Below are positions 13,394 through 37,468 of a stretch of 64,000 nt of DNA, piece after piece. This DNA comes from Chloroflexota bacterium. Lineage in GTDB: Bacteria > Chloroflexota > UBA11872 > VXNJ01. The notes below the pieces were generated by a model. That model saw only the letters and a list, made by a program, of their open reading frames with translations. It was not told the origin of the DNA and ran no database searches. Location: assembly GCA_965208775.1 (NCBI GenBank), contig OZ242360.1:126085-190084 (forward strand), written 5' to 3'. How positions within the stretch are numbered: position 1 is the first letter of the stretch; each line of letters begins with the position of its first letter. The position numbers and the translations under genes were made by a program.

Positions 13394-15685
13394 TCAACTT
13401 GACTCATAACTGTAGACCCTATCCTCAAGCAGTCCGAGGTCGAGTCCAAAGTAGTAGTCGAGTATTGCCCTGAAGTGGTTGACCGAAGTAATCGAGGGAT
13501 ACACGGCACTCTCGCCGCCCTCGGGAAGCAGGAACGCGGCCAGGATGTCGTGGCTGATCGAGGGATCGTGTTTTTCGTGTCCGTGGTCTCCGGCGATGAC
13601 GATTATCGGAGTTTGTTCCGAGTTGTCGAGTATCGCGTCGACGACTTCCAACATCTGGCCGTTCAGCCAAATGAGCTGACCATAGAATGCTCCGGGAACC
13701 GAGGGATCGTGGTCATCCTGCCAGCTTGCCCCGTCGAACCTGACGTTTCCATGCTTGTCGAACGAATAGGGGCCATGCGGTTTTATCAAATGCGCGACTA
13801 CAAACTTCGGCCCGTCCCAGATTCCGACTTCCTTCATGAATTCCAGCCAATCGAGAGCCCGTTGCGGATGCCCGAAACCGTAGGACCTGTGTTGCGTGCC
13901 AAATTCGGGCGAGAGGAGCAGATTCGCCACGGTTGTCTGCAAGAGCGCCGCGGCAAATCTGCCAGACAGGTGAGTTGTCCGTTCGAGCCGGAACGTTTCC
14001 CTAGTCTCCTCTCCGCTGAATAGGGTGCCCGAGGGGCTGAAGTCCACCACGACGTGCGCGGTGCTGTTGAAATTGGTCAATTCGAAACCAGAGGAGATAT
14101 GCAGATATCTATACCCAATGGTCATCAGGATTTGTCCCAATGCGTGAGCGTCTATCTGCGCTCGGAGACGTCGATAGGCCGCTTGCCTGTTGGTATCGAA
14201 GTACTCGGCGTCAACATATTCCATATTCAGGGTTGAAGTTGCTGAATGGTAAGTCCGAGCGTAGTTACTGCGAGCTTGTGGGGCCACGTAGAAGCCGCGG
14301 TTTTCCAGTTGCTGCACGAATTCGCTGTTGTCGAACTGCGGAGGCGAACCGCTCCTGGGATATTCATCCAGGATGATGTAATAGATGTCTCTAAGTTGAT
14401 CTCTTGAGAGTCTGTCCCTGGCTTCGGCGAGCCGTTCGTCGAGTCCCGGGAAACCGTCGAAAGGGTCAACGTCCTGTGGTCGGCTGCCTGCGTAGAAATC
14501 GGTGGCGATCTGGTAAATGGGCAAGAGAACAAGCAAAACGCTGCCCAGGTTGAGCGTCAGACCCAGCTTGCGCGTGAGGCCGGGATGTCGAGTTAGGAGC
14601 GCCCCGAGACCGAGAACGGTCGGTACGCCTAACCCAAGAAGATACCTGTCATCGGCGTGATCGCCCAGGGCGACGTATATGTGACCGTATGAGAAGAACG
14701 CGATTCCGAGCAGACCCGTAAGCGCCGCCGCCACGGTGGCTGTTTTGAAGATGAGCCGCAATGCCACGAAGGTGACCGTGACGGCCGCCATGGTGACCGC
14801 GAAGACGGCGATCGACTCGGAGACGCGAAACAAGAACAGGTTGCTGGAGAGATAGTGCAATATCGCGAAGGCGGGTATCAGCCACGGAAACACGTAGATG
14901 GCGCGCCGCGCGGTTGAAGTGCGAACAGACGATGCCTGATCCACACGGCGGCCCGGCGGTAGTCGCAGGACCGCCCGAACCCGGCCGGCCAGGGACACAA
15001 ACCCAATTCGCATCCTCCGCGTGGTGTTGCGCAGAGGTCGGGAGACCAGAGGCTGCGACAGTACCGTTATCGCGATTGCCAGCGCTGCGGCCGCCGGCGC
15101 TCCCGCCAGGCGCGCAAGGTCCGGCGTCGATCCCTCGAGAGCGGCCTGCCAACCCCTGCCCTTCCAGACGAACTCATGCGCGAGCGGGCCGTACTCCGTC
15201 GGCTGACGATGTATGGTTACAGACGCGCCAGTTCCCGGCTCGCTGGTCCCGAACATTACGTTGTAGTCCAGCTTCCGTTCCGCTCCGCGCTCCGTTGATA
15301 CCCAGAGTTGCAACGTGAGTTCTTCGCCGGGGGCAGGCCGGTAGGGCGGGAAAACGAGAACATACGCATCCAATTGCTTGCTCGCCCTGATTGAAACTTT
15401 GACCTGCCGCACAGGCTCTTCGGCATCTCCGCCAAGCAACGAGGCGACGACCGGCGCCTCGCCGCGGTCAAAGCGGGCGCGGGCCCAAATACGGACCTCT
15501 GAAACGATGTCGACGTCGTCCAGGACTTGCTCGACTGTTTGGTCGGGCCAGACGGGATCCGTGAGGTCGATAACCCCGCCCGAAGACCGCGAAACGAAGC
15601 TTGTTTGGGGCAGCAGGCTCGCCAGCAGCCCAATACTCACCAGAGCGAGAACAGCCGGTATCAGCCGGGAACGAACCATGTTCAC
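13394..15685 (-). CDS. LtaS-like paralog 1: membrane-anchored alkaline-phosphatase-superfamily (LtaS/sulfatase-like) protein.
   Basis: The 763-aa ORF has an N-terminal signal anchor, a ~170-aa ectodomain, about five TM helices, and a C-terminal domain with ILDEYPRSG and IIVIAGDHGHE motifs typical of LtaS/sulfatase-like phosphotransferases. Confidence 0.7.
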   Translation of the reverse strand: MNMVRSRLIPAVLALVSIGLLASLLPQTSFVSRSSGGVIDLTDPVWPDQTVEQVLDDVDIVSEVRIWARARFDRGEAPVVASLLGGDAEEPVRQVKVSIRASKQLDAYVLVFPPYRPAPGEELTLQLWVSTERGAERKLDYNVMFGTSEPGTGASVTIHRQPTEYGPLAHEFVWKGRGWQAALEGSTPDLARLAGAPAAAALAIAITVLSQPLVSRPLRNTTRRMRIGFVSLAGRVRAVLRLPPGRRVDQASSVRTSTARRAIYVFPWLIPAFAILHYLSSNLFLFRVSESIAVFAVTMAAVTVTFVALRLIFKTATVAAALTGLLGIAFFSYGHIYVALGDHADDRYLLGLGVPTVLGLGALLTRHPGLTRKLGLTLNLGSVLLVLLPIYQIATDFYAGSRPQDVDPFDGFPGLDERLAEARDRLSRDQLRDIYYIILDEYPRSGSPPQFDNSEFVQQLENRGFYVAPQARSNYARTYHSATSTLNMEYVDAEYFDTNRQAAYRRLRAQIDAHALGQILMTIGYRYLHISSGFELTNFNSTAHVVVDFSPSGTLFSGEETRETFRLERTTHLSGRFAAALLQTTVANLLLSPEFGTQHRSYGFGHPQRALDWLEFMKEVGIWDGPKFVVAHLIKPHGPYSFDKHGNVRFDGASWQDDHDPSVPGAFYGQLIWLNGQMLEVVDAILDNSEQTPIIVIAGDHGHEKHDPSISHDILAAFLLPEGGESAVYPSITSVNHFRAILDYYFGLDLGLLEDRVYSYESS
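14240..15685. repeat. Inverted-repeat arm A (~1.45 kb), ~95% identical to the reverse complement of 26702..28147.
   Basis: Codons 1–~483 of paralogs 1 and 2 are near-identical. I aligned DNA stretches by eye and found few mismatches. The end coordinates are approximate. Confidence 0.8.
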
Positions 15686-16940: not shown

Positions 16941-17109
16941 GCCCCGCCGTAATCCGGCGGATTGCCAATGGGTCGAATGAGTCTGGTGCTAAATTACGCG
17001 TCATGCAACTGATTTCATCGAGCGCGCTTCCTTTCTCGCCCGCGCCCAGCCGTCACCCGTCCATCCGTGCGCCACGACGCACATGCCGCTCAGGAGGCAG
17101 TCAGCCGTC

Positions 17110-18594
17110 ATGAATTTCATAGTCGTCGTCTGCGATACCCTGCGCCGCGACCACGTCAGCGCATACTCCGCGCAGCCCGAGCGCTGGGAATCGGGCGGCG
17201 AGTGGGCGGTGGAGACACCTCACTTCGACCGTTTCGCCCGCAATGCCTGCGTGTTCGAAAACGCCTACATTGGATCGTTTCCGACCGTCCCCAACCGACG
17301 AGAGATATTCACCGGACGGTCGGTTTTCACCTACGCCGAGTGGGCGCCGCTTCCGGCTTCCGAGATTGTCATCTCCGAAACGCTCGCAAACGCCGGCTAC
17401 ACGACCATGCTCATTGCCGACACTCCGCACATCTTGCAGCGAGGTTTTCACTTCGACCGCGGATTCACCGCCTGGGATTGGATCAGGGGGCAAGAAAACG
17501 ACCGGCTTCGCACGGACCCGCAGCGAGTGGAGTTGCCCTCCGCGCCCCATAAGCTGCGGGAGCCGGAAATGACCATGGGGCAATACCTTCGCAACATCGC
17601 CGACTGGCAGGAGGAAAGCGACCGGTTCTGCCCGACCACCTTCACGCGGGCCAGCCATTGGCTGGAGCAAAACGCCAAGAACAAGCCGTTCTTCCTACAC
17701 GTCGACACATTCGACCCCCACGAACCCTGGGACCCCCCGCAATCCGATGCGGACCGCTACGACCCCGGCTACGAAGGCGAGCGCGTCACTTACCCGGTAT
17801 ACGGCTACTGGGAAGGCTTCCTGAGCCCGGCTGAGCTGCGACATTCGCACGCTCTCTATTGCGGCGAGGTCTCCATGGTCGACCGCTGGTTCGGCCGGAT
17901 CCTGGACACGATGGACAGGCTCGATCTTTGGGACGACACGGCGCTTATCCTCACCTCGGACCACGGGTTCTATTTCGGCGAGCACGGAATAATCGGGAAG
18001 AGCATTATCGAGCCGAACGGACCCGTTCGGCCCCATCCGCTGCTCTCCGAGGTCGCCCGCATCCCGTTGATCGCCCATATTCCCGGCATAACCGAACCGG
18101 GAATGCGGCCCGGCGGCTATATCCAGCCGCTCGACCTGATGCCGACGTTCCTGGAGTTGGCAAACCTCGATGCGAGCGAGGTGGCGAACGGCCGGTCTCT
18201 CGTCCCGCTGATCACCGGCCAGACCGACAAGCTGCGTGAGTTTGCGGTCTCGTCGCACAGCATCTGCGTCCCGCTGGCAGGACGTCCGAGCACCATTGTC
18301 ACGCCCGACTGGACGCTAGTCTTGGGAGCGCCGCATTCGGCTTCGGAGACCGACGGCGGGGCGCAGACCGACACTGAAGTCATCGACAGCCGCCGCCGTA
18401 GAGAACAGCCCAGCGATGCCGCCACCTGCCCGCAACTCTATGACAATCACGCCGATCCCGGCATGACCAATAACGTGATCGAGGACCATCCCGACGAAGC
18501 CGGCGACCTTCGAGACATGTACATCGGCTACATCGAGTCGGTCGGAACCGCGGAGGAATATGTCGCCCCCCGCCGCCAAGCGCGGCTACATTAG
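17110..18594 (+). CDS. Sulfatase-like hydrolase (alkaline-phosphatase superfamily).
   Basis: It has VVVCDTLRRDH and LILTSDHGFYFGEHG motifs. I preferred the start at 17110 because AGGAGG lies upstream of it, whereas the 17083 ATG itself precedes that Shine-Dalgarno site. Confidence 0.75.
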   Translation: MNFIVVVCDTLRRDHVSAYSAQPERWESGGEWAVETPHFDRFARNACVFENAYIGSFPTVPNRREIFTGRSVFTYAEWAPLPASEIVISETLANAGYTTMLIADTPHILQRGFHFDRGFTAWDWIRGQENDRLRTDPQRVELPSAPHKLREPEMTMGQYLRNIADWQEESDRFCPTTFTRASHWLEQNAKNKPFFLHVDTFDPHEPWDPPQSDADRYDPGYEGERVTYPVYGYWEGFLSPAELRHSHALYCGEVSMVDRWFGRILDTMDRLDLWDDTALILTSDHGFYFGEHGIIGKSIIEPNGPVRPHPLLSEVARIPLIAHIPGITEPGMRPGGYIQPLDLMPTFLELANLDASEVANGRSLVPLITGQTDKLREFAVSSHSICVPLAGRPSTIVTPDWTLVLGAPHSASETDGGAQTDTEVIDSRRRREQPSDAATCPQLYDNHADPGMTNNVIEDHPDEAGDLRDMYIGYIESVGTAEEYVAPRRQARLH

Positions 18595-18710: not shown

Positions 18711-19853
18711 TTGCGAAGTCGGGTATCAGCCGGATATTGCGGACGCGGTGAAGGAATTGCCTTGAATCGACTCAAAATCGGCGTGATCGGGTGCGGGGCC
18801 ATAGCCCAGATTCAGCACCTGCCGCATCTGCGCGAGCTTGACGACCAGTTCGAGATCGGCGGAATCTGCGACATCTCGGACTACCTCCTGGGTAAAGTCG
18901 GCGACGACTTCCACGTTCCCGCCGCCAGGCGATTCAGCGATTATCACGAGCTTCTGGCTAGCGACATCGACGGGGTGATCGTCTGCTCCTCCGGCAACCA
19001 CGTCGCGCCCACACTGGCGGCAATCGGGGCGGGCAAGCACGTGCTCGTCGAAAAGCCCGCGTGCACCACAGTCGACGAGGCCCGCGAGATGACGCGGACC
19101 GCCGAGGAGGCGGGCGTGGTTTTCATGGTGGCTTACATGAAGCGATACGACCCCGGATTCATTTTTGCCAAGCAACGGATCGCTCGCATGGGAGAAGTCA
19201 GCTTCGTGCAGGTCAATCACTTTCATCCCGACAACGAGCTGCATACCGCCGAGTTCAGGTTTCACAGGGCTATCGACATCCCTCCCGAAGCACGGGAAGC
19301 CGCCCTGGCCGAGGACAACGCCGAAGTTGACGCTGCTCTCGGATTGCAACCGGCCAGTCCTGATCAGCGAGGGGCGTTCAACCTGATACTCGGAAGCCTG
19401 ATTCACGACATCGGAAACCTCCACGGGCTGTTCGGACCGCCGGAACGCGTGCTGCATACGGAAATCTGGCTGGGCGGACGGGCCGTATCGACAATGCTGG
19501 AATACCCGGGCGGCATACGTGCCGTGATGAACTGGGTCGATCTGCCCGAATTGTGGGACTTCGAGGAGACGCTCGCCGTTTATGGAAGTCGCGAGCGTGT
19601 GACCGTATCCTTTCCTACCGGTTTCGCGCGAGGACTTACGACGGACGTCACAGTTGTCGAAATCGACGGTGAGTTGAATCCGTCGAGAAAGTTCGCGCAG
19701 TGGCACGAGAACGCGTTCAAGAACGAGCTGGCGCATTTCGGCGACTGCATCAGCAACGGCCGAGAGCCGACTACTCCCGGACGCGAAGTGATCGACGATA
19801 CGACTCTCGTTCGGGAGATCGTTCTGGCTTGGCAGGGTAATGGAGCAAACTGA
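18711..19853 (+). CDS. Gfo/Idh/MocA-family oxidoreductase. The exact start is uncertain.
   Basis: Rossmann motif LKIGVIGCGAIA is present. The stop overlaps the next start (TGATG). Confidence 0.75.
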   Translation: MRSRVSAGYCGRGEGIALNRLKIGVIGCGAIAQIQHLPHLRELDDQFEIGGICDISDYLLGKVGDDFHVPAARRFSDYHELLASDIDGVIVCSSGNHVAPTLAAIGAGKHVLVEKPACTTVDEAREMTRTAEEAGVVFMVAYMKRYDPGFIFAKQRIARMGEVSFVQVNHFHPDNELHTAEFRFHRAIDIPPEAREAALAEDNAEVDAALGLQPASPDQRGAFNLILGSLIHDIGNLHGLFGPPERVLHTEIWLGGRAVSTMLEYPGGIRAVMNWVDLPELWDFEETLAVYGSRERVTVSFPTGFARGLTTDVTVVEIDGELNPSRKFAQWHENAFKNELAHFGDCISNGREPTTPGREVIDDTTLVREIVLAWQGNGAN

Positions 19854-20503
19854 TGGGCTTCGAGGTTTTCGACTACCGAAACGATCTCAAGAACGTATTC
19901 ATATCGCCTGAGATCAGGTCGCGATTCGTCGCGATGGAGCCGGGCGAAGTCTCGCAGCGGCACAGCCACGATCTCGGGCAGGAGATATTTCTGGTCTTGC
20001 AGGGCAGAGCCGAGTTCGAAATAGAGGGGCATCGAGAAGTGCTCGGGGTGGGGCAGCTCTGCGTTGCCGAGATCGACGAACAGCACTCCATTACGTGCCT
20101 CGGTGACGAGCCGATGATCATGTACCTCTCGGTAACTCCGCACGTCGAACCCACCCACACCAGATGGGACGGGCAGGGAAACAAGCTCCAGCCCAGCTAC
20201 GGTCCTTCAACCCGGCAGGAGCGGTCCCAGCACGACCCCGCGGCCGGCTTGTCGGCGGAAGAGCTTGCGGACAAGCTGGTCTCGTCGGCGCGGAAACTCT
20301 CGCGTGGAGCCGAGGAGGCGGCGAAGGTCCTGACCAGGTCCACGCCGGAGGCGGTAACGTCTCTTGACGAACGAGATCGGGAGTCTGGAATAAAGTCGCT
20401 AAACGAAATGTGGGCGCATGTCTTCACGGTCCTTGACGACGTGAGCAAAACCGAGCTTGCCTGGAACCAGTTCTCGGCAAGAATCGACGAATCGCTTCAA
20501 TGA
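19853..20503 (+). CDS. Cupin-domain protein with a ~100-aa helical C-terminal extension.
   Basis: It has a cupin-2 core (HSHDLGQEIFLVLQGRAEFEI…). The start codon overlaps the upstream stop by 1 nt. Confidence 0.6.
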   Translation: MGFEVFDYRNDLKNVFISPEIRSRFVAMEPGEVSQRHSHDLGQEIFLVLQGRAEFEIEGHREVLGVGQLCVAEIDEQHSITCLGDEPMIMYLSVTPHVEPTHTRWDGQGNKLQPSYGPSTRQERSQHDPAAGLSAEELADKLVSSARKLSRGAEEAAKVLTRSTPEAVTSLDERDRESGIKSLNEMWAHVFTVLDDVSKTELAWNQFSARIDESLQ

Positions 20504-20560: not shown

Positions 20561-22633
20561 GTGGACTCTGATTTCGCGGGAATCAGGGTCGGCGTAGACA
20601 CAGGCGGCACATTTACCGACCTGGTCGCGATGGACGTCCGAACGGGCCACGTTCAAGTCCACAAGCGGCCCTCCACTCCGGCCCAACCCAGCGACGCCAT
20701 CTTCGAGTGCATCGAGCAGATGGACAAGCCCGCGAGCCGTATCTCGTATCTCGTCGTCGGCACGACTGTAGCGATCAACTCAATCCACCAGCGGAACGGA
20801 GCGCGCGTGATCTACGTGACCACCGGGGGATTCGAAGACATCCCGTTCCTCCAAAGAACGAACCGAAGGTTCCATTACGACCTCCAATGGAGCAGCCCGA
20901 CTCCCCTGGTGCTTCGACGTGACAGCGTGGGGGTGCCCGAGCGGATCGACTATCAGGGCGAAGTGCTGATCCCGCTGACCGACGACGGGCTGAATCAGCT
21001 CGCCGCCGACATCCGGCGGCGGCTGGATGGCGCGGCGCGCGGCGACGTCGCTCTTGCGGTCAATTTCCTGTTTTCATACGTGAGTCCCGATCACGAGCTG
21101 AGGACAAGGGACTACCTGCGGAGCGAGTTCCCGGACGTTCCCGTGTCGGTGTCGTACGAAGTGGCGCCGATCTGGCGCGAATACGACCGCGCCAGCACAA
21201 CTCTGGTCGACGCTTACGTGAGACCCCTCGTGCACCAGTTCGTCCAGTCCATGCAGGCCGGTCTCGAGGAACGAGGGTTCGACCGCCACTGGTCGCTGAT
21301 GAAGTCCAACGGCGGGCAAATGCTCTCCCAATCGGCAGCCGACCGGCCTGTCCAAACGCTGCTTTCGGGTTTGTCGGGCGGCATTATCGCCGGAAGGCAT
21401 TTTGGCGAGGCGGTCGGCCAGAGCAACGTGATAACGCTCGACATGGGCGGCACCAGCACCGACGTGGGAGTCGTCGTCGACGGATTGGTTCGATATACGA
21501 CCGAATGGGAGATCGAGTTCGGACTGCCCGTCTCGGCCCCATTTATCGACATGACGACGATAGGCGCCGGCGGCGGTTCTATCGCATTCATAAACAAGGG
21601 CGGGCTGTTGCAGGTCGGCCCGTCCAGCGCGGGCGCCATCCCCGGCCCCGCCTGCTACGGCCAGGGCGGCGACCGCCCAACCGTTACCGATGCCAATATC
21701 GCCTTGGGCAGACTCAATCCCGACAACTTTCTGGGTGGCGAAGTAAAGCTGCATCCCGACCTGGCTGTGCGGGCGGTCGGGTCGCTCTCCGGGTCGCTGG
21801 GAACGTCGGTCGAAGCGACGGCCGCCGCCATCGTGGACGTCGCCAACGAGAACATCGCCGAGGCTATACGGCAGATGACGATAGGCCGGGGACTCGACCC
21901 GCGCGAATTCGCTATCGTCGCATTTGGCGGGGCGGGGCCGCTCCACGCGGCGGCCATCGCGCGGTCTATCGGAGTCGAGCAGGTCATTGTCCCTCCGCAT
22001 CCGGGACTGACCTCCGCTTTCGGAACCTTGCTCGCCGATCTTCGCGTCGACAAGACATGGACGAACATAGTCCGCTCCGACCGCCTCGATCCCAAAGCAA
22101 TCGACGACCGGCTTCAAGGTCTGGTTCTCGATGCGACCGAGGACCTTCGACGCGAAGGCTATGGGGGAGTGCCGACCCTCCGGCGCTCGGTAACAATGCG
22201 CTACCTTGGGCAGAACTACGAGGAAGAAATACCGATCCCGGCCGGCCCGATCACCGCCGAATCCGCGCGCGATCTGCTCGAATCGTTCCATCAGCACTAC
22301 GAGCAGATTTACGGCTACCGGATCGCCGACGAAATCATCGAGATGGTCCAGTTCAACGTGACTGTCATAGGCAGGACAGACAATCCGAGGTTCCCCGAAA
22401 TCGAGTCCGGGGCTGACGGCGCCCCAGTCGGGACAAGATCGGTCCTGTTCGATGGACAATACACTGCCGATTGTCCAATCTACGACCGTGAGGATTTAGC
22501 GCCCAATCAGAAAATCGAAGGTCCGGCGATAATCGAGGAACTTGATTCGACCACGTTCTTGCGGCCCGGCGATTCGCTAACCGTCACGCGCGACGGCACC
22601 GCGATTGTCCAAATTGATTCGACAGCCGATTGA
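20561..22633 (+). CDS. Hydantoinase/oxoprolinase A-family subunit (HyuA-like; acetone-carboxylase β-like).
   Basis: The N-terminal IRVGVDTGGTFTD motif and 690-aa length match the family. Confidence 0.85.
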   Translation: MDSDFAGIRVGVDTGGTFTDLVAMDVRTGHVQVHKRPSTPAQPSDAIFECIEQMDKPASRISYLVVGTTVAINSIHQRNGARVIYVTTGGFEDIPFLQRTNRRFHYDLQWSSPTPLVLRRDSVGVPERIDYQGEVLIPLTDDGLNQLAADIRRRLDGAARGDVALAVNFLFSYVSPDHELRTRDYLRSEFPDVPVSVSYEVAPIWREYDRASTTLVDAYVRPLVHQFVQSMQAGLEERGFDRHWSLMKSNGGQMLSQSAADRPVQTLLSGLSGGIIAGRHFGEAVGQSNVITLDMGGTSTDVGVVVDGLVRYTTEWEIEFGLPVSAPFIDMTTIGAGGGSIAFINKGGLLQVGPSSAGAIPGPACYGQGGDRPTVTDANIALGRLNPDNFLGGEVKLHPDLAVRAVGSLSGSLGTSVEATAAAIVDVANENIAEAIRQMTIGRGLDPREFAIVAFGGAGPLHAAAIARSIGVEQVIVPPHPGLTSAFGTLLADLRVDKTWTNIVRSDRLDPKAIDDRLQGLVLDATEDLRREGYGGVPTLRRSVTMRYLGQNYEEEIPIPAGPITAESARDLLESFHQHYEQIYGYRIADEIIEMVQFNVTVIGRTDNPRFPEIESGADGAPVGTRSVLFDGQYTADCPIYDREDLAPNQKIEGPAIIEELDSTTFLRPGDSLTVTRDGTAIVQIDSTAD

Positions 22634-22662
22634 GCCTGCGTGACGCCCGAACATGAGCCAGC

Positions 22663-24465
22663 ATGAAGACTAGCGGCGAAATGTCGGCAACCGATCTCGT
22701 ATCGATGACCGTCGTTTACAACCGTCTCGTCGGAATTGTCGAGGAGATGGGCACGACAATGATGCGCGCGTCGTACTCCCCGATCTTCAGCGAGAGCCTC
22801 GACTTCTCATGCGTGCTGTTCGGCCGAGACGCAAACATGCTCGCCCAGACCGAGTTCTCGCCAGCCCAAGTTGGAGCCATCAGGTTCGTCGTCAAGTGGC
22901 TTATTGCGGAAATTGGCGAAGATAACCTGAAGCCGGGCGACGTCGTCGTGCACAACGACCCTTACCGCGGCGGCGCGCACATGCCCGAGCACGTCGTTAT
23001 CAAGCCGGTCTACTACAAGGGCGAGTTGTTCGGTTACGTGGCCAACATCGCCCACATGGTCGAGATCGGGGGAATGGCAGTCGGCGGATTCGCCGCCACC
23101 GCGACCGAGGTCTATCAGGAGGGTCTGAGACTCCCGCCAGTCTGGCTGATGCGAGAAGGCGAGTACAACCACGATATATGGCGCATCGTCATGGCGAACC
23201 ATCGCGCGCCGCGGTACTCGTGGGGAGACCTGCATGCCATGCTCGCGTCGCTGGACATCGCCGAAAAGCGCGTCCACGAGCTGCTCGACGCCTACGGCAT
23301 GGAGCGGATTGCGACTATCAGCGCCCAGCTTCAGGACTACGCCGAGCGCTGGATGCGGGAAGAGCTGCGCACCATTCCCGACGGCGAGTACACCTTCGAA
23401 GACCACATGGAGGACGCCAGCGATCCGCCCATGAAAGATTGGGTGCGGCTGAGAGTGGTAGTCGACGACGGCAGCATCATCGCCGACTTCACCGGAAGCG
23501 ACCCGCAGGGACCTCACGTCCTTAACTGCACTTACGGGGTCACTGCCTCCGGCGTCTACAACGCCATATTCAATCTCGTCGACGACGACATTCCTCACAA
23601 CGAAGGTTCCTACCGCCCCATCACCGTCATCGCGCCCCCCGGAACCATCACCAACGTCATGGAGCCGGGACCGTCGGTCGGCGGGAATACCGAGACGCAT
23701 CCCCGGCTGTGGGAGATCGTCCTCGGCGCGATGTCGAAGGCCGTCCCGGACCGCGTTGCCGCAGCCACCGGCGGCACCTCGTGCAACTTCCTGTTCGGCG
23801 GCGTACATCCGCACACCGGCCGCTTTTACGCGCACTATCACTTCGACGGCGTTGGCTGGGGAGGACGGTCGCACGCGGACGGAAACGACAATCTGTGCGT
23901 TCCCAACGGCAATTGCCGCGCCACGCCGGTGGAGATATTCGAGACCCGTTATCCCTTCGTCGAGTGGTCGTACCGGCTGCGCAACGATTCTGGCGGCCCG
24001 GGCGAGCATCGCGGCGGATTGGGCAGCGAGCGCGTTCTGGAGGTCCGAGCGCCGGAGATTAACGTCTCGGCACTGTATGACAGGATGGTCAGTCCGCCGT
24101 GGGGGCTGTTCGGGGGCGGAGACGCGGCAACTTCATCGCTGCTCGTAAGACGCGTGGGCGACGACAAGTACAGGACATTCCGCGAGGCCTATGGCACCAA
24201 GAGTAACTCCCGCATCGCCAACATCAAGTTGAAGCGCGGCGACCGCGTGATGCTTTGCAGCTCCGGCGGAGGCGGATTCGGGCGTCCGACCGACCGTCCG
24301 GCCGAGCTGGTGCTCGAAGACGTTCTGGACGGATACGTGTCGGTCGAAGCGGCCCGCGATCTTTACGGAGTCGAAATCGAGAGTTCCAACGGCGAGACCG
24401 TGCTCAACGACGACAAAACCGAGGCGCACCGCACCGCATCGCGCCCGGAAGGTGGAGCTTCGTGA
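22663..24465 (+). CDS. Hydantoinase B/oxoprolinase-family subunit (HyuB-like; acetone-carboxylase α-like).
   Basis: The 600-aa ORF is HyuB-type (…RLPPVWLMREGEY…, DPYRGGAHMPE…) and lies immediately downstream of HyuA. Confidence 0.85.
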   Translation: MKTSGEMSATDLVSMTVVYNRLVGIVEEMGTTMMRASYSPIFSESLDFSCVLFGRDANMLAQTEFSPAQVGAIRFVVKWLIAEIGEDNLKPGDVVVHNDPYRGGAHMPEHVVIKPVYYKGELFGYVANIAHMVEIGGMAVGGFAATATEVYQEGLRLPPVWLMREGEYNHDIWRIVMANHRAPRYSWGDLHAMLASLDIAEKRVHELLDAYGMERIATISAQLQDYAERWMREELRTIPDGEYTFEDHMEDASDPPMKDWVRLRVVVDDGSIIADFTGSDPQGPHVLNCTYGVTASGVYNAIFNLVDDDIPHNEGSYRPITVIAPPGTITNVMEPGPSVGGNTETHPRLWEIVLGAMSKAVPDRVAAATGGTSCNFLFGGVHPHTGRFYAHYHFDGVGWGGRSHADGNDNLCVPNGNCRATPVEIFETRYPFVEWSYRLRNDSGGPGEHRGGLGSERVLEVRAPEINVSALYDRMVSPPWGLFGGGDAATSSLLVRRVGDDKYRTFREAYGTKSNSRIANIKLKRGDRVMLCSSGGGGFGRPTDRPAELVLEDVLDGYVSVEAARDLYGVEIESSNGETVLNDDKTEAHRTASRPEGGAS

Positions 24466-24475
24466 ACGGCAATTC

Positions 24476-24701
24476 GATGGAAGAGCGTGACGAGCGTCAG
24501 ACCCACGAGGGGCGCTGGGAACAGCTGAACCGAAGCTGGTGGGACACCAAGGTCGTCAACTGCGAGATGTGCGGCCAGATGATCCCTCGCGACGTGTGGA
24601 AAAGCGCCGACGGCCACTCGTTTTGCTCAGTCGAATGCGATGATCTCTACCGCTCCTATTGGCTGCCGCGCTACGGCGGGAAGACGACGACACACGACTA
24701 G
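24476..24701 (+). CDS. Small (~75-aa) putative Zn-ribbon protein, possibly a γ-like subunit of the hydantoinase/carboxylase.
   Basis: It has a C4 pattern CEMCGQ…CSVEC and starts 11 bp after the HyuB stop. The gene order A–B–small matches acetone carboxylase acxABC. The six-frame track shows a longer overlapping form. Confidence 0.45.
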
Positions 24702-24777: not shown

Positions 24778-26313
24778 CTATTGGCGCGAAGCGGAACTCA
24801 GCCTCGTCATCAGATAGAGCCTGCGACCGGAATTTGCGATTGGGACGGCTCGTTCAGTAGAGAAGTATCGGCCAAACGCCTTTTCGAAGCTCTCCCGGTT
24901 ATAGCCTGGAAAAGAGTGATTCCTCAGGGCCAGCAGACGCTCGACTTTGGGGTCATCACGTGGAACATACTCGATGATCAACGACTTGCCCAGCGATGCG
25001 AAGAACTCGGCGAGCCTGCTGAGGGGCACGTTGTTGGTTATGGCCAGATGATGGACCAGGGCCAGCGCGATTACCGCATCCGTCGGCCCTCGATCCAGGA
25101 GCGACATGCGCTCCGTATTGGCCCATCCACTGGCGGGGCTAGGATTCGAAACGTCGGCAACTATTGGATACACCGTGGCATCTCGACTGCGGGCGACCTC
25201 CCGATAGCTGATTTCGATGGCTCCCGGATCGCTATCGATCGATATCACGCGCACACCCTGTTCAGCCGCGATCCGGGTGAATTCACCGGTGTTGGCTCCG
25301 ATATCCCAAGCCTCCACGGGGCCAACGCTGCGAAGATACTCGGCTACCAGCCCCTTCTTGCTATCGAATCCGGCGTCGTCGTAGCTCTCGCCCTGGTAAT
25401 AGTCTGACCACTCGCTCACCTCGGGATCCCAGCCGAGACTACTCACTGTCGATCTCAGATTGTTCAGGATGGTAAGCAGCCCTTTACGGCTCATCCGTCC
25501 TCGAAAGTCCTTGCGCGTGCTTGCTTTGCCCGCCTGGCGGACCTGCAATTTGGCGTGTGAGAACAGATGCATCGCAAGGCCGGGCCGTAAGCGACTTCGC
25601 AGCGGCAACAGGCGAGCCGCCAGCGCCAGCGGTATTCCGTCAAGATGCACCTCAAGTAAGCGGCCCAGGCTTACGTCCCGAAGCGCCATCAGAGCCAAAG
25701 GCGCCAGGAAATGCTGGCAAAACTGCTTGTACGCCACCCACGGGAAACCCTCTTCGTATTCCTCGAACGATAAAGTGTCCACAAGCGCGGGGCGGCCGCC
25801 GTGGAGCTGAATGTTGTAGGCGCTGGCATCCTTGAGCGACATCCCGAACTCGACAGCCCGAATCTGGATATCCAGCGTGACCAGAGCCGAGTCTCTAAGC
25901 TGGCTGAAGCACCATTCATACGGGTAGGAGATGAACGGTACTTGAGCCGGCTTCAGAATCCTGTAAGCCTGCTCGTCCTCCAGCCCGGCGGGCACCTCCT
26001 CATGAGGCAGCAGCAATCCATCCCGCACAAGGCCGTCATAGAGGCCGGAAGCCATCAGACGGTCATAGACCGGCCCATATGACTTGGCGACGTGACGGAA
26101 GACGCACCCGTCCCGCCGGAAGACGAATCCCGCCGGATCGCGAAACGATCCGGCTATCGCTTCATCGATCCCTATCGTCACCCGGCCCATCCACGGCTCT
26201 GCGATCAGCCTCGGTCGATTCCACATCCTCAAGGCTGGACACGGTGCCTCCGTCACCAGACGAGCGCCGGAAGATCCCGAGAATCCTGCGGAACCACAGC
26301 CCCACCGAAACAA
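24778..26313 (-). CDS. Two-domain protein: an N-terminal ~330-aa domain with a protein-kinase-like catalytic-loop pattern, fused to a C-terminal class I SAM-dependent methyltransferase.
   Basis: The C-terminal region carries SAM motif I (WDIGANTGEFTRIAAEQGVRVISIDSD). The N-terminal region has DASAYNIQLHGGRPALVDTLSFEE, resembling the HxD…N / D(F/L)(G/S) motifs. The start is probably internal (~26229 or 26190). Confidence 0.6.
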   Translation of the reverse strand: MFRWGCGSAGFSGSSGARLVTEAPCPALRMWNRPRLIAEPWMGRVTIGIDEAIAGSFRDPAGFVFRRDGCVFRHVAKSYGPVYDRLMASGLYDGLVRDGLLLPHEEVPAGLEDEQAYRILKPAQVPFISYPYEWCFSQLRDSALVTLDIQIRAVEFGMSLKDASAYNIQLHGGRPALVDTLSFEEYEEGFPWVAYKQFCQHFLAPLALMALRDVSLGRLLEVHLDGIPLALAARLLPLRSRLRPGLAMHLFSHAKLQVRQAGKASTRKDFRGRMSRKGLLTILNNLRSTVSSLGWDPEVSEWSDYYQGESYDDAGFDSKKGLVAEYLRSVGPVEAWDIGANTGEFTRIAAEQGVRVISIDSDPGAIEISYREVARSRDATVYPIVADVSNPSPASGWANTERMSLLDRGPTDAVIALALVHHLAITNNVPLSRLAEFFASLGKSLIIEYVPRDDPKVERLLALRNHSFPGYNRESFEKAFGRYFSTERAVPIANSGRRLYLMTRLSSASRQ

Positions 26314-26701: not shown

Positions 26702-28147
26702 TTGCTTAGATCTCGCTTGCGGCTGATACCGGCTGTTCTCGTTCTGGTAAGTATTGGGCTGCTGGCGAGCCTGCTGCCCCAAACAAGCTTCGTTTCGCGG
26801 TCTTCGGGTGGGGTTGTCGACCTCACGGATCCCATCTGGCCCGACCAAACAGTCGAGCAAGTCCTGGACAATGCCGACATCGTTTCGGAAGTCCGTATTT
26901 GGGCCCGCGCCCGCTTTGATCGCGGCGAGGCGCCGGTCGTCGCCTCGTTGCTGCGCGGACAGGATGAACAGCCTGTGCGTCAGGTCAAAGTGTCAATTCG
27001 GGCGAGCAAGCAATTGGATGCGTATGTTCTCGTTTTCCCGCCCTACCGGCCTGGCCCCGGCGAAGAACTCACGTTGCAGCTCTGGGTCTCAACGGAGCGC
27101 GGAGCGGAACGGAAGCTGGACTACAACGTAATGTTCGGGACCAGCGAGCCGGGAACTGGCGCGTCTGTGACCATACATCGTCAGCCGACGGAGTACGGCC
27201 CGCTCGCGCATGAGTTCGTCTGGAAGGGCACGGGTTGGCAGGCCGCTCTCGAGGGATCGACGCCGGACCTTGTGCGCCTGGTCGGCGCATTAGCGGCAGC
27301 CGCCTTAGCCGTTGCCGTAACAATACTGTCGCATCCTCTGGTGTTCCGACCTCTGCGCAACACCGCGCGGAGGATGCGACTTGGGTTTGTGTCCCTGGCC
27401 GGCCGGGTTCGGGCGGTCCTGCGACTACCGCAGGGCCACCGTGTGGCTCAAGCATCGTCTGTTCGCACTTCAACCGCGCGGCGCGCCATCTACGTGTTTC
27501 CGTGGCTAATACCCGCCTTCGCGATATTGCACTATCTCTCCAGCAACCTGTTCTTGTTTCGCGTCTCCGAGTCGATCGCCGTCTTCGTGGTCACCATGGT
27601 GGCCGTCACGGTCACGTTCACGGTATTGCGGCTCATCTTCAAGACGGCCGCAGTGGCGGCGGCGCTTACGGGTCTGCTCGGAATCGCGTTCTTCTCATAC
27701 GGTCACATATACGTCGCGCTGGGCGATCACGCCGATGACAGGTATCTTCTTGGATTAGGCGTACCGACCGTTCTCGGTCTCGGGGCGCTCCTAACTCGAC
27801 ATCCCGGCCTCACGCGCAAGCTGGGTCTGACGCTCAACCTGGGCAGCGTTTTGCTTGTTCTCCTGCCCATTTACCAGATCGCCACCGATTTCTATGCAGG
27901 CAGCCGACCGCAAGACGTTGACCCTTTCGACGGATTCCCGGGACTCGAGGAACGGCTAGCCGAAGCCAGGGACAGACTCTCAAGAGATCAACTTAGAGAC
28001 ATCTATTACGTCATCCTGGATGAATATCCCAGGAGCGGTTCGCCTCCGGAGTTCGACAACAGCGAATTCGTGCAGCAACTCGAAAACCGCGGCTTCTACG
28101 TGGCCCCACAAGCTCGCAGTAACTACACGCGCACGTACCAGTCGATT
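26702..28147. repeat. Inverted-repeat arm B (~1.45 kb), partner of 14240..15685.
   Basis: See arm A. Identity ends close to the start codons on both arms, and the upstream regions differ. Confidence 0.8.
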
Positions 28148-28972
28148 CCCTCATCCCTGAACGCTAGCTACTTCGGTGAACTGGCTGGAGACGAGGAGCC
28201 CGCTCGACTTCAGGATATTGGAACAGTCGATGACCACCTTCTTGGCCGAATTCTGAAAGCTCTAGGGTACAGATACGTGCACGTTTCGTCGGGATACTTC
28301 TCGACCAAGACAAACCAAAACGCCGACCTTGTCGTTGACTTTGCGCCATCCGGAACCCTTCTCTCTGGGGCCGAAGCCCCGAAGGCGCTTGAAGAGACGA
28401 CACGCTTGTCAAGCAAGTTTGCAAACACTTTCCTGCGAACAACCGCAGCCCAGCCGTTCGTGTCCAAGGATTTCGACGTTGAGCCTGACGGCATTTACGG
28501 CTGGGGCAACCCATTCCGGACCCTGGCCTGGATCGAGTTCATGAAAGAAGCCGCGGCTGTCGATGGGCCAAAGTTCATATTCGCCCACCTTCTAAAACCG
28601 CATTCCCCTTACTCCTTCGATAGATTTGGAGCCATCAGCACGGATTTAGCCGGCTGGAGCGACGATCACGATCCCACGGTAAACAGCGCATTTTACGGTC
28701 AGCTCATATGGCTCAACGGTCAATTGCTCGAAGTTATCGACGCTGTACTCGACGACTACGACGAACCGCCGATTATCGTCGTCGCGGCAGACCATGGGCG
28801 CAAAGGTCCTTTCCGCAACGAGATCCTGGCGGCGTTCCTGCTTCCCGACGGCGGCGAGAGCGCCGTGTATCCCTCAATTACCTCAGTCAACCATTTCAGG
28901 GCAATCCTGGATTACTACTTCGAACTGGACCTCGGTCTGCTGGAGGACAAGGTCTATAGTCACCCGGGTTGA
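26702..28972 (+). CDS. LtaS-like paralog 2 (TTG start), a mosaic of paralogs 1 and 3.
   Basis: Residues 1–~483 are ~95% identical to paralog 1, and the C-terminal catalytic domain is closer to paralog 3. The DHG motif reads VVAADHGRKG rather than IAGDHGHE. Confidence 0.7.
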   Translation: MLRSRLRLIPAVLVLVSIGLLASLLPQTSFVSRSSGGVVDLTDPIWPDQTVEQVLDNADIVSEVRIWARARFDRGEAPVVASLLRGQDEQPVRQVKVSIRASKQLDAYVLVFPPYRPGPGEELTLQLWVSTERGAERKLDYNVMFGTSEPGTGASVTIHRQPTEYGPLAHEFVWKGTGWQAALEGSTPDLVRLVGALAAAALAVAVTILSHPLVFRPLRNTARRMRLGFVSLAGRVRAVLRLPQGHRVAQASSVRTSTARRAIYVFPWLIPAFAILHYLSSNLFLFRVSESIAVFVVTMVAVTVTFTVLRLIFKTAAVAAALTGLLGIAFFSYGHIYVALGDHADDRYLLGLGVPTVLGLGALLTRHPGLTRKLGLTLNLGSVLLVLLPIYQIATDFYAGSRPQDVDPFDGFPGLEERLAEARDRLSRDQLRDIYYVILDEYPRSGSPPEFDNSEFVQQLENRGFYVAPQARSNYTRTYQSIPSSLNASYFGELAGDEEPARLQDIGTVDDHLLGRILKALGYRYVHVSSGYFSTKTNQNADLVVDFAPSGTLLSGAEAPKALEETTRLSSKFANTFLRTTAAQPFVSKDFDVEPDGIYGWGNPFRTLAWIEFMKEAAAVDGPKFIFAHLLKPHSPYSFDRFGAISTDLAGWSDDHDPTVNSAFYGQLIWLNGQLLEVIDAVLDDYDEPPIIVVAADHGRKGPFRNEILAAFLLPDGGESAVYPSITSVNHFRAILDYYFELDLGLLEDKVYSHPG

Positions 28973-29079: not shown

Positions 29080-31350
29080 TTGTCTAAATTTCGCCGCCCG
29101 CTGATCTCCGCCGTTCTCGTATTGGTCAGTGTCGGGCTGTTCGCAAGCCTGCTGCCTCAAACAAGCTTCGTCTCGCGGTCTTCCGGTGAAGTTGTCGACG
29201 CCATAGGTCCTGTTTGGCCCGACCAATCAGTCGAGCAAGTCCTGGATGGCGTCGACATCGTTTCAGAGGTCCGCATCTGGACCCGCGCCCGCTTTGACCG
29301 CGGCGAGGCGCCGGTCGTCGCCTCGTTGCTGCGCGGGCAGGATGAACAGCCTGTGCGTCAGGTCAGATTTCCAATCAGGCCGAACAAGCTCCTAGAGCCG
29401 AACGTTCTCGTCTTTCCGCCGTACCGACCTGCCCCCGGCGAAGAACTCACGTTGCAACTCTGGGTTTCAACGGAGCGCAGAGCAGAGCGGGAGCTGGACT
29501 ATTACGTGATGTTCGGGACCAGCGAGCGGGAATCCGGCGCGTCTCTTACGCTCAATAGTGAGCCGACTGACTACGGCCCTCTCGCTTACGAAGTGATTTG
29601 GAGAGGAACAGGTTGGCAAGCCGCTCTCGAGGGATCGACGCCGGACCTCGCGCGCCTTGCGGGAGGGCTGGCGGCCGCAGCGCTGGCAATCGCGATAACG
29701 GTACTGTCGCATCCTTTGGTCTCCCGAACTCTGCGCAATACCACGCGGAAGATGCGAATCGCGTTTACGTCCCTGGCCAGCCGGGTGCAGACGGCAATGC
29801 GCCTATCGCAGGACCGCCGAGCGTCTCGACCATCAGCCGCACGGCGTGCCTTCTACGTCTTTCCGTGGCTATTCCCCGCTTTCGCGATATTGCACTATCT
29901 CTCCAGCAACCTGGTCCTGTTCGGGCTGTCCGAGTCCATCGTGGTCTTCGTGATCACCATGGCGGCCGTCACGGTCACCTTCGTGGGATTGCGGATCATC
30001 TTCAAAACAGCCGCCGTGGCGGCGGCGCTTACGGGTCTGCTCGGAATCGCGTTCTTCTCATACGGTCATATTTACGTAGCCTTGGGCGACCACGCCGACG
30101 ACAGGTACCTTCTTGGATTGGGCATACCGACCGTGCTCGGTCTTGGAGCCCTGATAGCACGACGACCGGAAGCAGTCCGCACGACCATCCCGATTCTCAA
30201 TGTGGCAAGCGTTGTCCTACTCGCGGCGTCGGTGTATCAGATCGCCTCCCATTACTATGCGGCGAGTTCCCCACAACCCGATCAAGGTTCAGAAGCATCA
30301 GTCCCGCTTGAAGAAATCGTCACCGACGCGAAGACGCGAGTCCCCTCAAGCGAACTCCGGGACATCTATTACATCGTCCTGGACGAATATCCCAGAAGCG
30401 GTTCCCCGGAGCAATTTGACAACGCGGAGTTCATACAAGAACTCGAAAGCCGCGGCTTCTATGTCGCCTCCCAGGCACGCAGCAACTATCCAGAGTCGTT
30501 TATGTCCATACCCTCTTCCTTGAATATGGACTACGTAGGCGAGGACACCATACGGGGACCAGGGGAGACTGGCCGCCTCGTCGAAATGGCCGACGACCAC
30601 GCGCTGGGCCGCATTCTGAAAGCGCTGGGCTACCGGTATCTCCACGTTTCGTCAGGATGGTTTTTCACCAAGACAAGCCGCAACGCCGATGAGATCGTGG
30701 CATTCGCGCCTTCGGGCCGCATCCGTTCCGGGCCCGAAACCGCCCAGCCGCTTTCGTTCGACGAGGCCGCCCGCTTGTCAAACAGATTTACGACTACCTT
30801 CTTGCGAACGACCGCCATCAGGCCATTCCTGTCGCATGAATTCAGCGTTGAGCATGACGATCCCTATGACTCGACCCACCCGTTTCACACGCTCGCATGG
30901 CTCGAATTCATGAAAGAGATCGCGAGCATCGATGGACCGAAGTTTGTGTTTGCGCATTTAATGAGGCCGCACGATCCGTATTCGTTCGACAAGTCAGGGA
31001 ACATCACATTCGACCAGATCGGCTGGCGTGATGATCACGATCCCACGGTTGGCGGCGCGTTCTACGGTCAAGTCATCTGGCTCAACGGCCAGATGCTGGA
31101 GGTCATCGACGCCGTACTGGACGATTACGACGAACCGCCGATAATCGTGATCGCGGGAGACCACGGGCACGAACGGCATAATCCCACCATCGCTAATGAC
31201 ATACTCGCGGCGTTCCTGCTTCCCGACGGCGGCGAGAGCGCCGTGTATCCGTCAATTACCTCGGTCAACCACTTCAGGGCAATACTGGACTACTATTTCG
31301 GACTCGATCTAGGACTGCTTGAGGACAGGGTCTACAGCCCCGGTAGTTGA
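29080..31350 (+). CDS. LtaS-like paralog 3 (TTG start).
   Basis: The 756-aa ORF has the same architecture. It shares near-identical tracts with paralog 2 (e.g. GEAPVVASLLRGQDEQPVRQV) and the conserved C-terminal 50 residues. Confidence 0.7.
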   Translation: MSKFRRPLISAVLVLVSVGLFASLLPQTSFVSRSSGEVVDAIGPVWPDQSVEQVLDGVDIVSEVRIWTRARFDRGEAPVVASLLRGQDEQPVRQVRFPIRPNKLLEPNVLVFPPYRPAPGEELTLQLWVSTERRAERELDYYVMFGTSERESGASLTLNSEPTDYGPLAYEVIWRGTGWQAALEGSTPDLARLAGGLAAAALAIAITVLSHPLVSRTLRNTTRKMRIAFTSLASRVQTAMRLSQDRRASRPSAARRAFYVFPWLFPAFAILHYLSSNLVLFGLSESIVVFVITMAAVTVTFVGLRIIFKTAAVAAALTGLLGIAFFSYGHIYVALGDHADDRYLLGLGIPTVLGLGALIARRPEAVRTTIPILNVASVVLLAASVYQIASHYYAASSPQPDQGSEASVPLEEIVTDAKTRVPSSELRDIYYIVLDEYPRSGSPEQFDNAEFIQELESRGFYVASQARSNYPESFMSIPSSLNMDYVGEDTIRGPGETGRLVEMADDHALGRILKALGYRYLHVSSGWFFTKTSRNADEIVAFAPSGRIRSGPETAQPLSFDEAARLSNRFTTTFLRTTAIRPFLSHEFSVEHDDPYDSTHPFHTLAWLEFMKEIASIDGPKFVFAHLMRPHDPYSFDKSGNITFDQIGWRDDHDPTVGGAFYGQVIWLNGQMLEVIDAVLDDYDEPPIIVIAGDHGHERHNPTIANDILAAFLLPDGGESAVYPSITSVNHFRAILDYYFGLDLGLLEDRVYSPGS

Positions 31351-33272: not shown

Positions 33273-33284
33273 CGATCCGATCTC

Positions 33285-36077: not shown

Positions 36078-36330
36078 CGCTACTGCCCTGTCATCGCACG
36101 CAATGCCGTGACCGGGTAGCGATTACAGGCGGAGCCGGGATCAATGTCACCAGAGGTAGTACCGCAACAATGTATGCGAGCGGCGCCCGCCGACGCCACT
36201 CGGAGTCGAAGACGGGTCATACAGCGCGAAGTTTACTTTGCCTTAGTCCACCTCGGCCGCAGGCCACGAGTCCGGCTTGAAGTCCAATCCCGTCTGGCGA
36301 CTTGACAGTTTTCCCGGCAAAGCCAGACCG

Positions 36331-37344: not shown

Positions 37345-37468
37345 GATCGCCGCCCGCCCACTACAAGAAATCGGGGTACGCGAGTAGTCCCATAGTCTCC
37401 TGATCGGTGCCTCTACGCCCCACTGTGGGTTATCGATCGCTCAACGACTAAATCGTTCATCGACGCCG

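Follow-up and report, generated by a model that had tools for sequence, protein, structure and literature searches.

Hydantoinase/oxoprolinase-type enzymes use ATP to open very stable lactam rings, and they matter for the recycling of nylon monomers as well as for 5-oxoproline, creatinine and opine metabolism. In this family, subunit A uses ATP to phosphorylate the substrate, which subunit B hydrolyses once it is activated (PMC11033972). The hydrolase branch has been described as two-component, a small zinc-binding γ subunit being found only on the ketone carboxylases (PMC8453981, PMC5214803): the Hyd enzymes "are lacking orthologs of Apcγ" (PMC5214803) and the γ subunit is absent from caprolactamase (PMC8453981). 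AcxC of acetone carboxylase is a 20 kDa protein with a Yippee-like fold, a four-cysteine (Cys4) zinc site and an unclear role (PMC5543143), while Apcγ of acetophenone carboxylase carries Cys22, Cys25, Cys75 and Cys78 and is wrapped in the C-terminal arm of its HyuB-like partner (PMC5214803). The carboxylase γ subunits thus bind this C-terminal arm, their role is unknown, and their zinc is considered structural (PMC5214803, PMC5543143, PMC8453981). Here we analyse a 64-kb stretch of DNA from a Chloroflexota bacterium (contig OZ242360.1, positions 126,085 to 190,084; hereafter the window, meaning this whole stretch), in which a hyuA-hyuB pair is followed by a small gene for a Cys4 protein that we call HyuZ, a name coined in this analysis. 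HyuZ is probably a zinc-binding treble-clef partner, or detachable domain, of HyuB in one distinct subfamily of ATP-dependent HyuAB enzymes. All coordinates are those of the whole window, and features lie on the + strand unless marked otherwise.

The HyuA-type subunit (690 amino acids (aa); ATP-binding, substrate-phosphorylating) is encoded at 20561-22633 and matches the Pfam families Hydant_A_N, Hydantoinase_A and Hydant_A_C (E = 1e-12 to 4.5e-93), and the HyuB-type subunit (600 aa; metal-dependent hydrolytic site) is encoded at 22663-24465 and matches Hydantoinase_B (E = 4.7e-175, 583 bits). The small open reading frame (ORF) behind them ends at 24701 and contains the motif CEMCGQ...CSVEC within the translated stretch ...GRWEQLNRSWWDTKVVNCEMCGQMIPRDVWKSADGHSFCSVECDDLYRSYWLPRYG.... 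An earlier reading of the window, made from its letters without database searches (the original prediction), had placed all three genes where we find them. It gave the motif correctly and miscounted the residues between the cysteine pairs as 24; there are 17, the spacing being CxxC-x17-CxxxC (C34, C37, C55 and C59 in the 79-aa numbering, with cysteine codons at 24561, 24570, 24624 and 24636).

Two starts are available to the small gene, an ATG at 24477 (11 nt past the hyuB stop, giving 74 aa) and a GTG at 24462 (79 aa). With the hyuB stop the GTG forms an overlapping GTGA, and a Shine-Dalgarno-like AGGTGGAG, recognised as such from its sequence and with its function inferred, lies 4 nt upstream within the 3' end of hyuB (24450-24457). 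A start codon is present at the equivalent of 24462, 33 residues before the CxxC, in the related loci L001 and L007-L010, and in L009 it is the sole one available. Because homologous loci keep a start codon there and one of them has no other, the HyuZ start is most likely GTG 24462 rather than ATG 24477, and the 11-bp gap and length of about 75 aa that had been proposed hold for the ATG only. The gene as we delimit it (24462-24701) encodes a protein of 79 aa and 9.4 kDa with an isoelectric point (pI) of 5.3, and the overlap with the hyuB stop suggests translational coupling and synthesis at a ratio of about 1:1. A longer ORF opening at a TTG at 24255 was rejected as a candidate: it is the frame of the small gene continued backwards into the 3' part of hyuB, where it yields Arg-rich off-frame text. 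How far upstream the frame stays open is different in each relative; in L008, the closest of them, it closes two codons before the start.

The small Cys4 ORF is a real, conserved gene, and it is under purifying selection. Its in-frame GC content at third codon positions (GC3) is 0.81, versus 0.7-0.8 in the neighbouring genes, with 0.55 and 0.45 at codon positions 1 and 2, and its ratio of nonsynonymous to synonymous substitutions (dN/dS) is 0.13-0.31 in comparisons with L001 and L003 (pN 0.20-0.28; pS 0.58-0.69, near saturation). The original prediction had left the small frame in doubt on account of the longer ORF covering it; this codon usage and dN/dS speak for a real gene. A search of the window in six frames finds the motif CxxCG-x8-30-Cxxx[CH] a single time. 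In nine HyuZ sequences that share 59-81% identity, the four cysteines and 29 other positions are invariant, and MCGQMIPRD, W19, W26, W27, W46 and a C-terminal W-x-PRYG (W67, P69-G72) are kept. The fourth ligand is a histidine instead of a cysteine in several distant family members, a swap that fits a role as metal ligand. An exhaustive profile search of 1.84 billion representative proteins returned 201 family members at E ≤1e-3 and 47 at E ≤1e-10, mostly of 60-90 aa; all named database entries of the family are called 'hypothetical protein', and of 54 members tested not one scores above the threshold of a Pfam or NCBIfam model.

The position of hyuZ is as constant as its sequence. A pattern scan of one genome for each of 185,579 species recovered 15 loci, 14 of them in Chloroflexota metagenome-assembled genomes (MAGs) and one in a MAG labelled Gemmatimonadetes. 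The pair hyuA-hyuB lies immediately upstream of the small gene in all 15 and in six out of six metagenome loci, and four distant members on long contigs, one of them from Thermomicrobiales, likewise have a hyuB gene or a fragment of one upstream. Conservation of the small ORF behind hyuB, which the original prediction had made a test of its own reading, therefore extends to 25 of 25 related loci (the 15 species-genome loci, the six metagenome loci and the four distant members). When a hidden Markov model of HyuZ was run over all six-frame ORFs of the 495 kb of compared sequence, it matched only at these hyuB-linked positions.

In five Chloroflexota loci (L014, L017, L018, L020 and L021) the finger is in frame with the C-terminus of HyuB, whose part of the fusion is full-length in L014, L017 and L020; the two are joined by an Ala-, Gly-, Arg- and Pro-rich linker of some 35 residues. 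At least 10 further metagenomic representatives consist of a HyuB C-terminal fragment, linker and finger, and one has the finger followed by the HyuB N-terminus. Such fusion to HyuB is a classical signature of a physically associated component. Four Chloroflexota MAGs carry two paralogous HyuA-HyuB-finger systems each (L013/L020, L014/L016, L015/L017 and L019/L021), with one copy fused to HyuB and the other split; a class III aminotransferase gene comes after the split copy in three of these MAGs, whereas the contig of the remaining one (L019) ends too early to show one. In one case alone was the fusion partner not HyuB: P0117, a metagenomic protein of 483 aa, has a HyuZ-like finger at its N-terminus and a remainder that, judged by eye, looks like an alanine-racemase-N/D-serine-dehydratase-type pyridoxal phosphate enzyme.

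The finger itself had been called a zinc ribbon. In an AlphaFold2 (AF2) model of HyuZ (mean predicted local distance difference test score 76, core above 90), an N-terminal β-strand (G-R-W-E-Q), the CxxC knuckle and short β-strands precede a helix at residues 57-71, with the last ligand (C59) in the first turn of the helix and the third (C55) just before it. HyuZ is thereby predicted to be a treble-clef finger of the TRASH/FCS-like kind and not a zinc ribbon, these classes being those of Krishna et al. 2003 as cited in PMC5214803. The TRASH/FCS ligand pattern CxxC-x(17-22)-CxxxC, with an FCS-like third ligand, is present as CEMC-x17-CSVEC with its 'FCS'. HyuZ gives weak matches to TRASH_HVO_1752_C, zf-FCS and L24e, all of them below curated thresholds, and sequence searches of the PDB, both with the single protein and with the profile, returned marginal FCS-finger matches only.

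In HyuA the ATP motifs are intact (DTGGTFTD at residue 13, DMGGTSTD at 294 and GAIPGP at 358; motif definitions P1 DxGGTxTD, P2 DxGGT and adenosine GxxPGP from PMC8453981), and the CapB metal ligands D41/H99/D102/H124 correspond to D47/H106/E109/H131 in the window HyuB, Glu replacing Asp at 109. By domains, motifs and metal site, both proteins belong to the HyuA/HyuB hydrolase-carboxylase superfamily. Against solved structures, HyuA scores 437 bits with N-methylhydantoinase (7hk5) and 378 with the caprolactamase CapA (6yra_A), versus 268 with Apc and 259 with Acx; the corresponding scores of HyuB are 292 (7hk5), 275 (CapB), 120 (Apc) and 79-80 (Acx). The alignment of HyuB with CapB (581 aa) runs from end to end, and two features of the carboxylases, a long C-terminal arm of 50-90 aa and an N-terminal extension, are absent; HyuB-like subunits of carboxylases measure 684-776 aa. 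Judging from these sequence comparisons, HyuA and HyuB belong to the hydrolase (caprolactamase/N-methylhydantoinase) branch and not to the carboxylase branch, which does not support the acetone-carboxylase-like reading of the original prediction. The best NCBIfam models are those of CapA and CapB (NF050156 and NF050157), with 517 and 324 bits against equivalog cut-offs of 1000 bits; these scores are far under the cut-offs, and orthology to CapA/CapB was rejected.

HyuZ shows no detectable homology to the carboxylase γ subunits. None of the 54 members matches Pfam Acetone_carb_G (PF08882) at E ≤0.01, a model that gives 179.5 bits on our positive control, the genuine AcxC of the Paracoccus yeei acxABC locus, and hhalign assigns a probability of 0.6% to the alignment of the HyuZ profile with that AcxC. 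The two cysteine pairs are separated by 17 residues in HyuZ versus about 46-50 in AcxC of X. autotrophicus (C74/C76 ... C124/C127) and in Apcγ (C22/C25 ... C75/C78). Homology was rejected on Pfam, hhalign, cysteine spacing and predicted fold together. The acxABC-like trio of the original prediction therefore survives as a layout, in that three genes are conserved and functionally linked and the small protein is tied to the HyuB-like subunit as γ is, and fails as a statement of descent and probably of chemistry; on the sequence comparisons, the resemblance is one of architecture and not of family membership. Concerning AcxC itself, the acxC gene of P. yeei plasmid pTT13-2 (L027, 5760-6260) encodes only two cysteines (C81 and C124) despite its 179.5 bits on Acetone_carb_G; set against the four-cysteine zinc site reported for X. 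autotrophicus AcxC, this indicates that the Cys4 site may not be universal in AcxC.

The association of HyuB with a small finger is not limited to Chloroflexota. A tblastn search of annotated plasmids with the window small protein gave no match, and the link to plasmids came through HyuB, whose nearest plasmid relatives are on Halalkalicoccus jeotgali plasmid 2 (53% identity) and Rhizobium ruizarguesonis pRL12 (43%). On the former, a 49-aa ORF (...CALCGKKMFVTDHEIDGVTVCSEWC...) overlaps the hyuA start, and on the latter a 67-aa ORF (...CDNCGVLLY...YCSDWC...) lies between hyuA and hyuB. In Sulfitobacter dubius a mini-protein of the Rhizobium type comes after hyuB and is followed by succinate-semialdehyde dehydrogenase and aminotransferase genes, while in A. 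vitis S4 a HyuB of 640 aa begins with a related finger of about 60 residues, its gene being followed by an aminotransferase gene. All HyuB proteins of 43-53% identity to that of the window (Halalkalicoccus, Rhizobium, A. vitis and Sulfitobacter) thus have an adjacent or fused Cys4 mini-ORF, and no such ORF, annotated or unannotated, was found in six plasmid HyuAB loci whose HyuB is at most 38% identical to it. In a HyuB tree the 11 finger-associated proteins form one clade (bootstrap 100), with the six finger-less ones and AcxB outside. From this clade and the adjacency pattern, the finger tracks a single HyuAB subfamily in both Bacteria and Archaea, while where it sits and whether it is fused are shuffled. 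The alphaproteobacterial finger family comprises 14 clusters, and in a profile-profile comparison it matches the Chloroflexota family with 88.7% probability (E = 2.6e-6), over the finger core only.

Annotation has obscured these small proteins. Several stand-alone Cys4 mini-proteins of 63-69 aa (P0247, P0250, P0251, P0255 and P0256) are named 'N-methylhydantoinase B' by IMG or NCBI, others are annotated 'hypothetical protein', and the related P0249 is named 'Metallothionein' by UniRef. The first of these labels is an artefact that hides the family, and it probably arises because some reference HyuB proteins carry an N-terminal finger fusion. Two of the finger-less operons, on Haladaptatus and Halorussus plasmids, show a different neighbour: a gene for an Nramp divalent-metal transporter (L029, 744-1952; L034, 740-1948) ends one base before hyuA, and the start of an Asp/Glu racemase-family gene overlaps the hyuB stop. 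The Nramp gene beside these haloarchaeal hyuAB genes suggests a dedicated metal supply for the enzymes.

What these enzymes act on has to be judged from three genomic contexts. In one, that of the window, the order is [sulfatase]-GFO-cupin-HyuA-HyuB-HyuZ. In another, HyuA-HyuB-HyuZ is followed by a class III aminotransferase, joined in Sulfitobacter by a succinate-semialdehyde dehydrogenase. In the third, a fused HyuB-Z is found among genes for a peptide-type ATP-binding cassette transporter, xylose-isomerase-like TIM barrel proteins, a 2-hydroxyacid dehydrogenase and an enolase-superfamily protein. The caprolactam route consists of a lactamase followed by an ω-aminotransferase (PMC6061476), and the aminotransferase context, which mirrors it, points to lactams of ω-amino acids; by analogy, the product of those sister loci is probably an ω-amino acid or another amine, since a class III aminotransferase follows. 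No class III aminotransferase gene is present in the 64-kb window, whose GFO/IDH/MocA, cupin and sulfatase neighbours allow the guess that the substrate may be a sugar-derived or sugar-linked cyclic amide. Agrobacterium AgaF/AgaG, which open the sugar-linked lactam agropinic acid, offer a precedent and nothing beyond that, and a literature search combining agropinic acid and hydantoinase found nothing relevant.

Taken together, these observations can be assembled into a scheme in four steps. We assume, by analogy, that the mechanism of the subunit A/B family applies to the window enzyme. HyuA would use ATP to phosphorylate a cyclic amide in its enol or imidate form, a chemistry known for the family and for which the motifs are intact here, and HyuB would then hydrolyse the activated intermediate at its Asp/His/Glu/His metal site, again by family chemistry with conserved ligands. 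HyuZ, translated by coupling to hyuB as the stop/start overlap seen here suggests, would bind HyuB as a stoichiometric third component, as its strict synteny and its fusions to either HyuB end imply; its four cysteines would hold a structural zinc and its many invariant aromatic residues would form the interface. Finally, HyuZ may stabilise or assemble HyuA2B2, a job also proposed for the non-homologous γ subunits of acetone and acetophenone carboxylases. Insoluble or unstable B subunits are a problem on record (PMC8453981, PMC11033972). We infer a structural or assembly role, with metal delivery as its main rival.

Several points weigh against this scheme. Binding of HyuZ to HyuB is deduced from gene order and fusions alone, and the Ala/Gly/Arg/Pro-rich linker of some 35 residues in the fused forms would fit a mobile domain as well as a rigidly docked one. 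The match between the Chloroflexota and alphaproteobacterial fingers covers about 37 columns and is mostly the cysteine pattern, so that the two could have been recruited independently. The HyuB tree is a neighbour-joining tree of 18 sequences, assembled without CapB or N-methylhydantoinase. As for the enzyme, the lactamase assignment of the window locus comes by homology alone because it has no aminotransferase context.

The same evidence bears on the alternatives, one being that the small ORF is a chance, untranslated open frame in GC-rich DNA. Spurious ORFs are many in GC-rich genomes, and a longer open frame of the same phase does extend back into hyuB; the frame upstream of the start is unconserved, however, whereas the small gene itself shows purifying selection, keeps its cysteine and aromatic positions invariant across 59-81% identity, stays behind hyuB in 21 of 21 close loci and has 201 representative clusters at E ≤1e-3, by which the chance reading is effectively refuted. 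Metal delivery is a more serious competitor to a structural role, though still an unlikely one: HyuZ would be a TRASH-type metallochaperone or metal-sensing module that delivers or buffers Zn, Mn or Fe for the HyuB site. The weak matches to TRASH_HVO_1752_C, zf-FCS and L24e, the conserved metal site in HyuB, the flexible linker that carries the finger in fused forms and the Nramp transporter directly upstream of two finger-less haloarchaeal HyuAB loci, a hint that metal supply matters, would all suit such a role. However, the TRASH matches all fall below curated thresholds, Cys4 treble-clef sites are usually structural, and the most conserved positions other than the ligands are aromatic (W19, W26, W27, W46, Y63, Y66, W67 and Y71), which looks like a protein interface.

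The trio could also be a true ketone carboxylase, with HyuZ as a very short, highly diverged homologue of AcxC/Apcγ and the GFO/IDH/MocA dehydrogenase making the ketone. The acxABC gene order (HyuA-like, HyuB-like, small Cys4) is indeed matched, the adjacent dehydrogenase parallels the sequence from alcohol to ketone to carboxylation (an alcohol dehydrogenase gene lies just downstream of the Paracoccus acx locus), and sequence motifs cannot separate hydrolases from carboxylases (PMC5214803). That reading is nevertheless improbable, as the small protein has 0.6% in hhalign with AcxC, no Acetone_carb_G match in 54 members, a different cysteine spacing and a different predicted fold, while HyuB reaches 275-292 bits with hydrolases against 79-120 with carboxylases and has neither C-terminal arm nor N-terminal extension; the sister loci with an aminotransferase, with or without a semialdehyde dehydrogenase, moreover follow the logic of converting a lactam to an amino acid. 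It is highly improbable that HyuZ binds nucleic acid and regulates its own operon, for example at the level of translation or transcription, without being part of the enzyme. Treble clefs of the FCS, L24e and YacG types often bind RNA, DNA or DNA-handling proteins, and small zinc-finger proteins of prokaryotes have varied regulatory roles, which would be in its favour; yet HyuZ is acidic (pI 5.3), has no helix-turn-helix or other nucleic-acid-binding module, is fused in frame, recurrently and in unrelated lineages, to either end of HyuB, and begins at a stop-start overlap that suggests coupling and roughly 1:1 synthesis. We thus retain a partner or detachable domain of HyuB as the preferred reading of HyuZ.

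A wider proposal, which we put forward tentatively and would not yet bet on, is that HyuZ is an obligatory zinc-binding third subunit defining an unrecognised HyuAB subfamily of Bacteria (Chloroflexota and Alphaproteobacteria) and Archaea (Halobacteria), and a convergent counterpart of γ on the hydrolase branch; it may be needed for assembly or activity, and the subfamily may act on lactams so far unassigned to such enzymes, for example sugar-linked or ω-amino-acid lactams. No description of such a zinc-finger component of HyuAB was found in the literature searched. If the proposal is true, HyuZ would be a third part to co-express with these enzymes and an annotation marker separating this subfamily from other HyuAB enzymes. 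It would also be the second independent small zinc protein on a HyuB-type subunit and may help to explain the enigmatic γ of the carboxylases. As the family is present in cultured, tractable bacteria (Rhizobium leguminosarum, A. vitis S4 and Sulfitobacter dubius), it is directly testable.

In the window, the three genes close a co-directional run on the + strand that begins with a sulfatase gene (17083-18594) and continues with a GFO/IDH/MocA NAD(P)-dependent oxidoreductase gene (18711-19853; Pfam GFO_IDH_MocA, E = 3.9e-23), whose stop overlaps the start of the gene for a 216-aa cupin-domain protein (19853-20503; Pfam Cupin_2, E = 1.7e-13). The order GFO-cupin-HyuA-HyuB-small gene is common to L001, L002 and L007-L011, where the cupin is 54-92% identical and always lies between the GFO gene and hyuA. 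Between 16.8 and 25 kb, counts of predicted promoters and terminators are no higher than in shuffled sequence, and the same scan found no terminator in the 76-bp spacer 3' of the small gene. Beyond that spacer, the gene at 24778-26313 (- strand) had been taken for a kinase-like/methyltransferase fusion. Of its product, only a C-terminal methyltransferase domain (residues 337-459) is recognisable, below Pfam thresholds, the N-terminal 330 residues having no Pfam match; the gene is kept near the hyu cluster in L007, L008 and partly in L001. The sulfatase, BNR/sialidase-like and GFO/IDH/MocA neighbours that had been named alongside it are present as described.

Further out, the genes at 13394-15685 (- strand), 26702-28972 and 29080-31350 encode three proteins of 756-763 aa in which Pfam recognises only the C-terminal third, as a weak sulfatase-like match, and assigns nothing to the N-terminal 450 or so residues; from their similar size and this shared match they look like a paralogous family. 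A run of large ORFs devoid of Pfam matches (582, 930, 699, 922, 427 and 915 aa) extends over 31524-48217, with a GT2 glycosyltransferase gene (36331-37344) inside it, and the AT skew is unusually high (0.27) at 34-36 kb. At the other end of the window, a futalosine-pathway menaquinone cluster (2090-6635, - strand) contains two VitK2_biosynth and two radical-SAM MqnC/MqnE-like genes and adjoins a TetR regulator gene.

Among described systems, the enzyme of the window is closest to CapAB (6yra), OplAB and N-methylhydantoinase (7hk5), with which it shares the HyuA/HyuB architecture, the ATP motifs, the HyuB metal ligands and the top structure scores, its sister loci further sharing the lactamase and ω-aminotransferase arrangement of the caprolactam pathway. 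Unlike the window locus, these three have no third subunit described, and γ orthologues are lacking in the Hyd branch (PMC5214803, PMC8453981); the window HyuB, for its part, is without the vicinal-disulphide context of CapB, and no aminotransferase gene is adjacent to it. AcxC and Apcγ resemble HyuZ in being small Cys4 zinc-binding proteins encoded directly after a HyuB-like gene, and in both Acx and Apc γ is held by a C-terminal arm of its HyuB-like partner, much as the finger is fused to the HyuB C-terminus in the sister loci of HyuZ. They differ from it in size (79 aa in HyuZ versus 166 aa in AcxC of Paracoccus yeei, and 15-20 kDa for AcxC/Apcγ), in fold (a predicted treble clef versus the Yippee-like fold of AcxC) and in the branch to which their partners belong, hydrolase for HyuZ and carboxylase for AcxC/Apcγ.

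The closest parallels to the finger itself are found elsewhere. The TRASH/FCS fingers (ribosomal L24e, MYM/FCS, haloarchaeal TRASH_HVO_1752_C and DUF7576) have the CxxC ... [FY]CSxxC pattern of HyuZ with the last two ligands at the helix start, whereas HyuZ is set apart by a conserved G-x-W strand at its N-terminus, a YWLPRYG helix at its C-terminus and a strict genomic tie to hyuB, the last not reported for the TRASH/FCS families. The alphaproteobacterial Cys4 proteins of 63-69 aa (for example S. dubius WP_243263862.1 and R. ruizarguesonis WP_029768277.1) and the N-terminal extension of A. vitis S4 HyuB (WP_012650545.1) share with HyuZ the ligand pattern CxNCG ... YCSxxC. They differ from it in having no G-x-W strand or YWLPRYG helix, in their variable placement with respect to hyuA and hyuB, and in that the finger core alone aligns, at about 24% identity; like HyuZ, however, they are adjacent to or fused with HyuB, and their partner is the same HyuAB clade.

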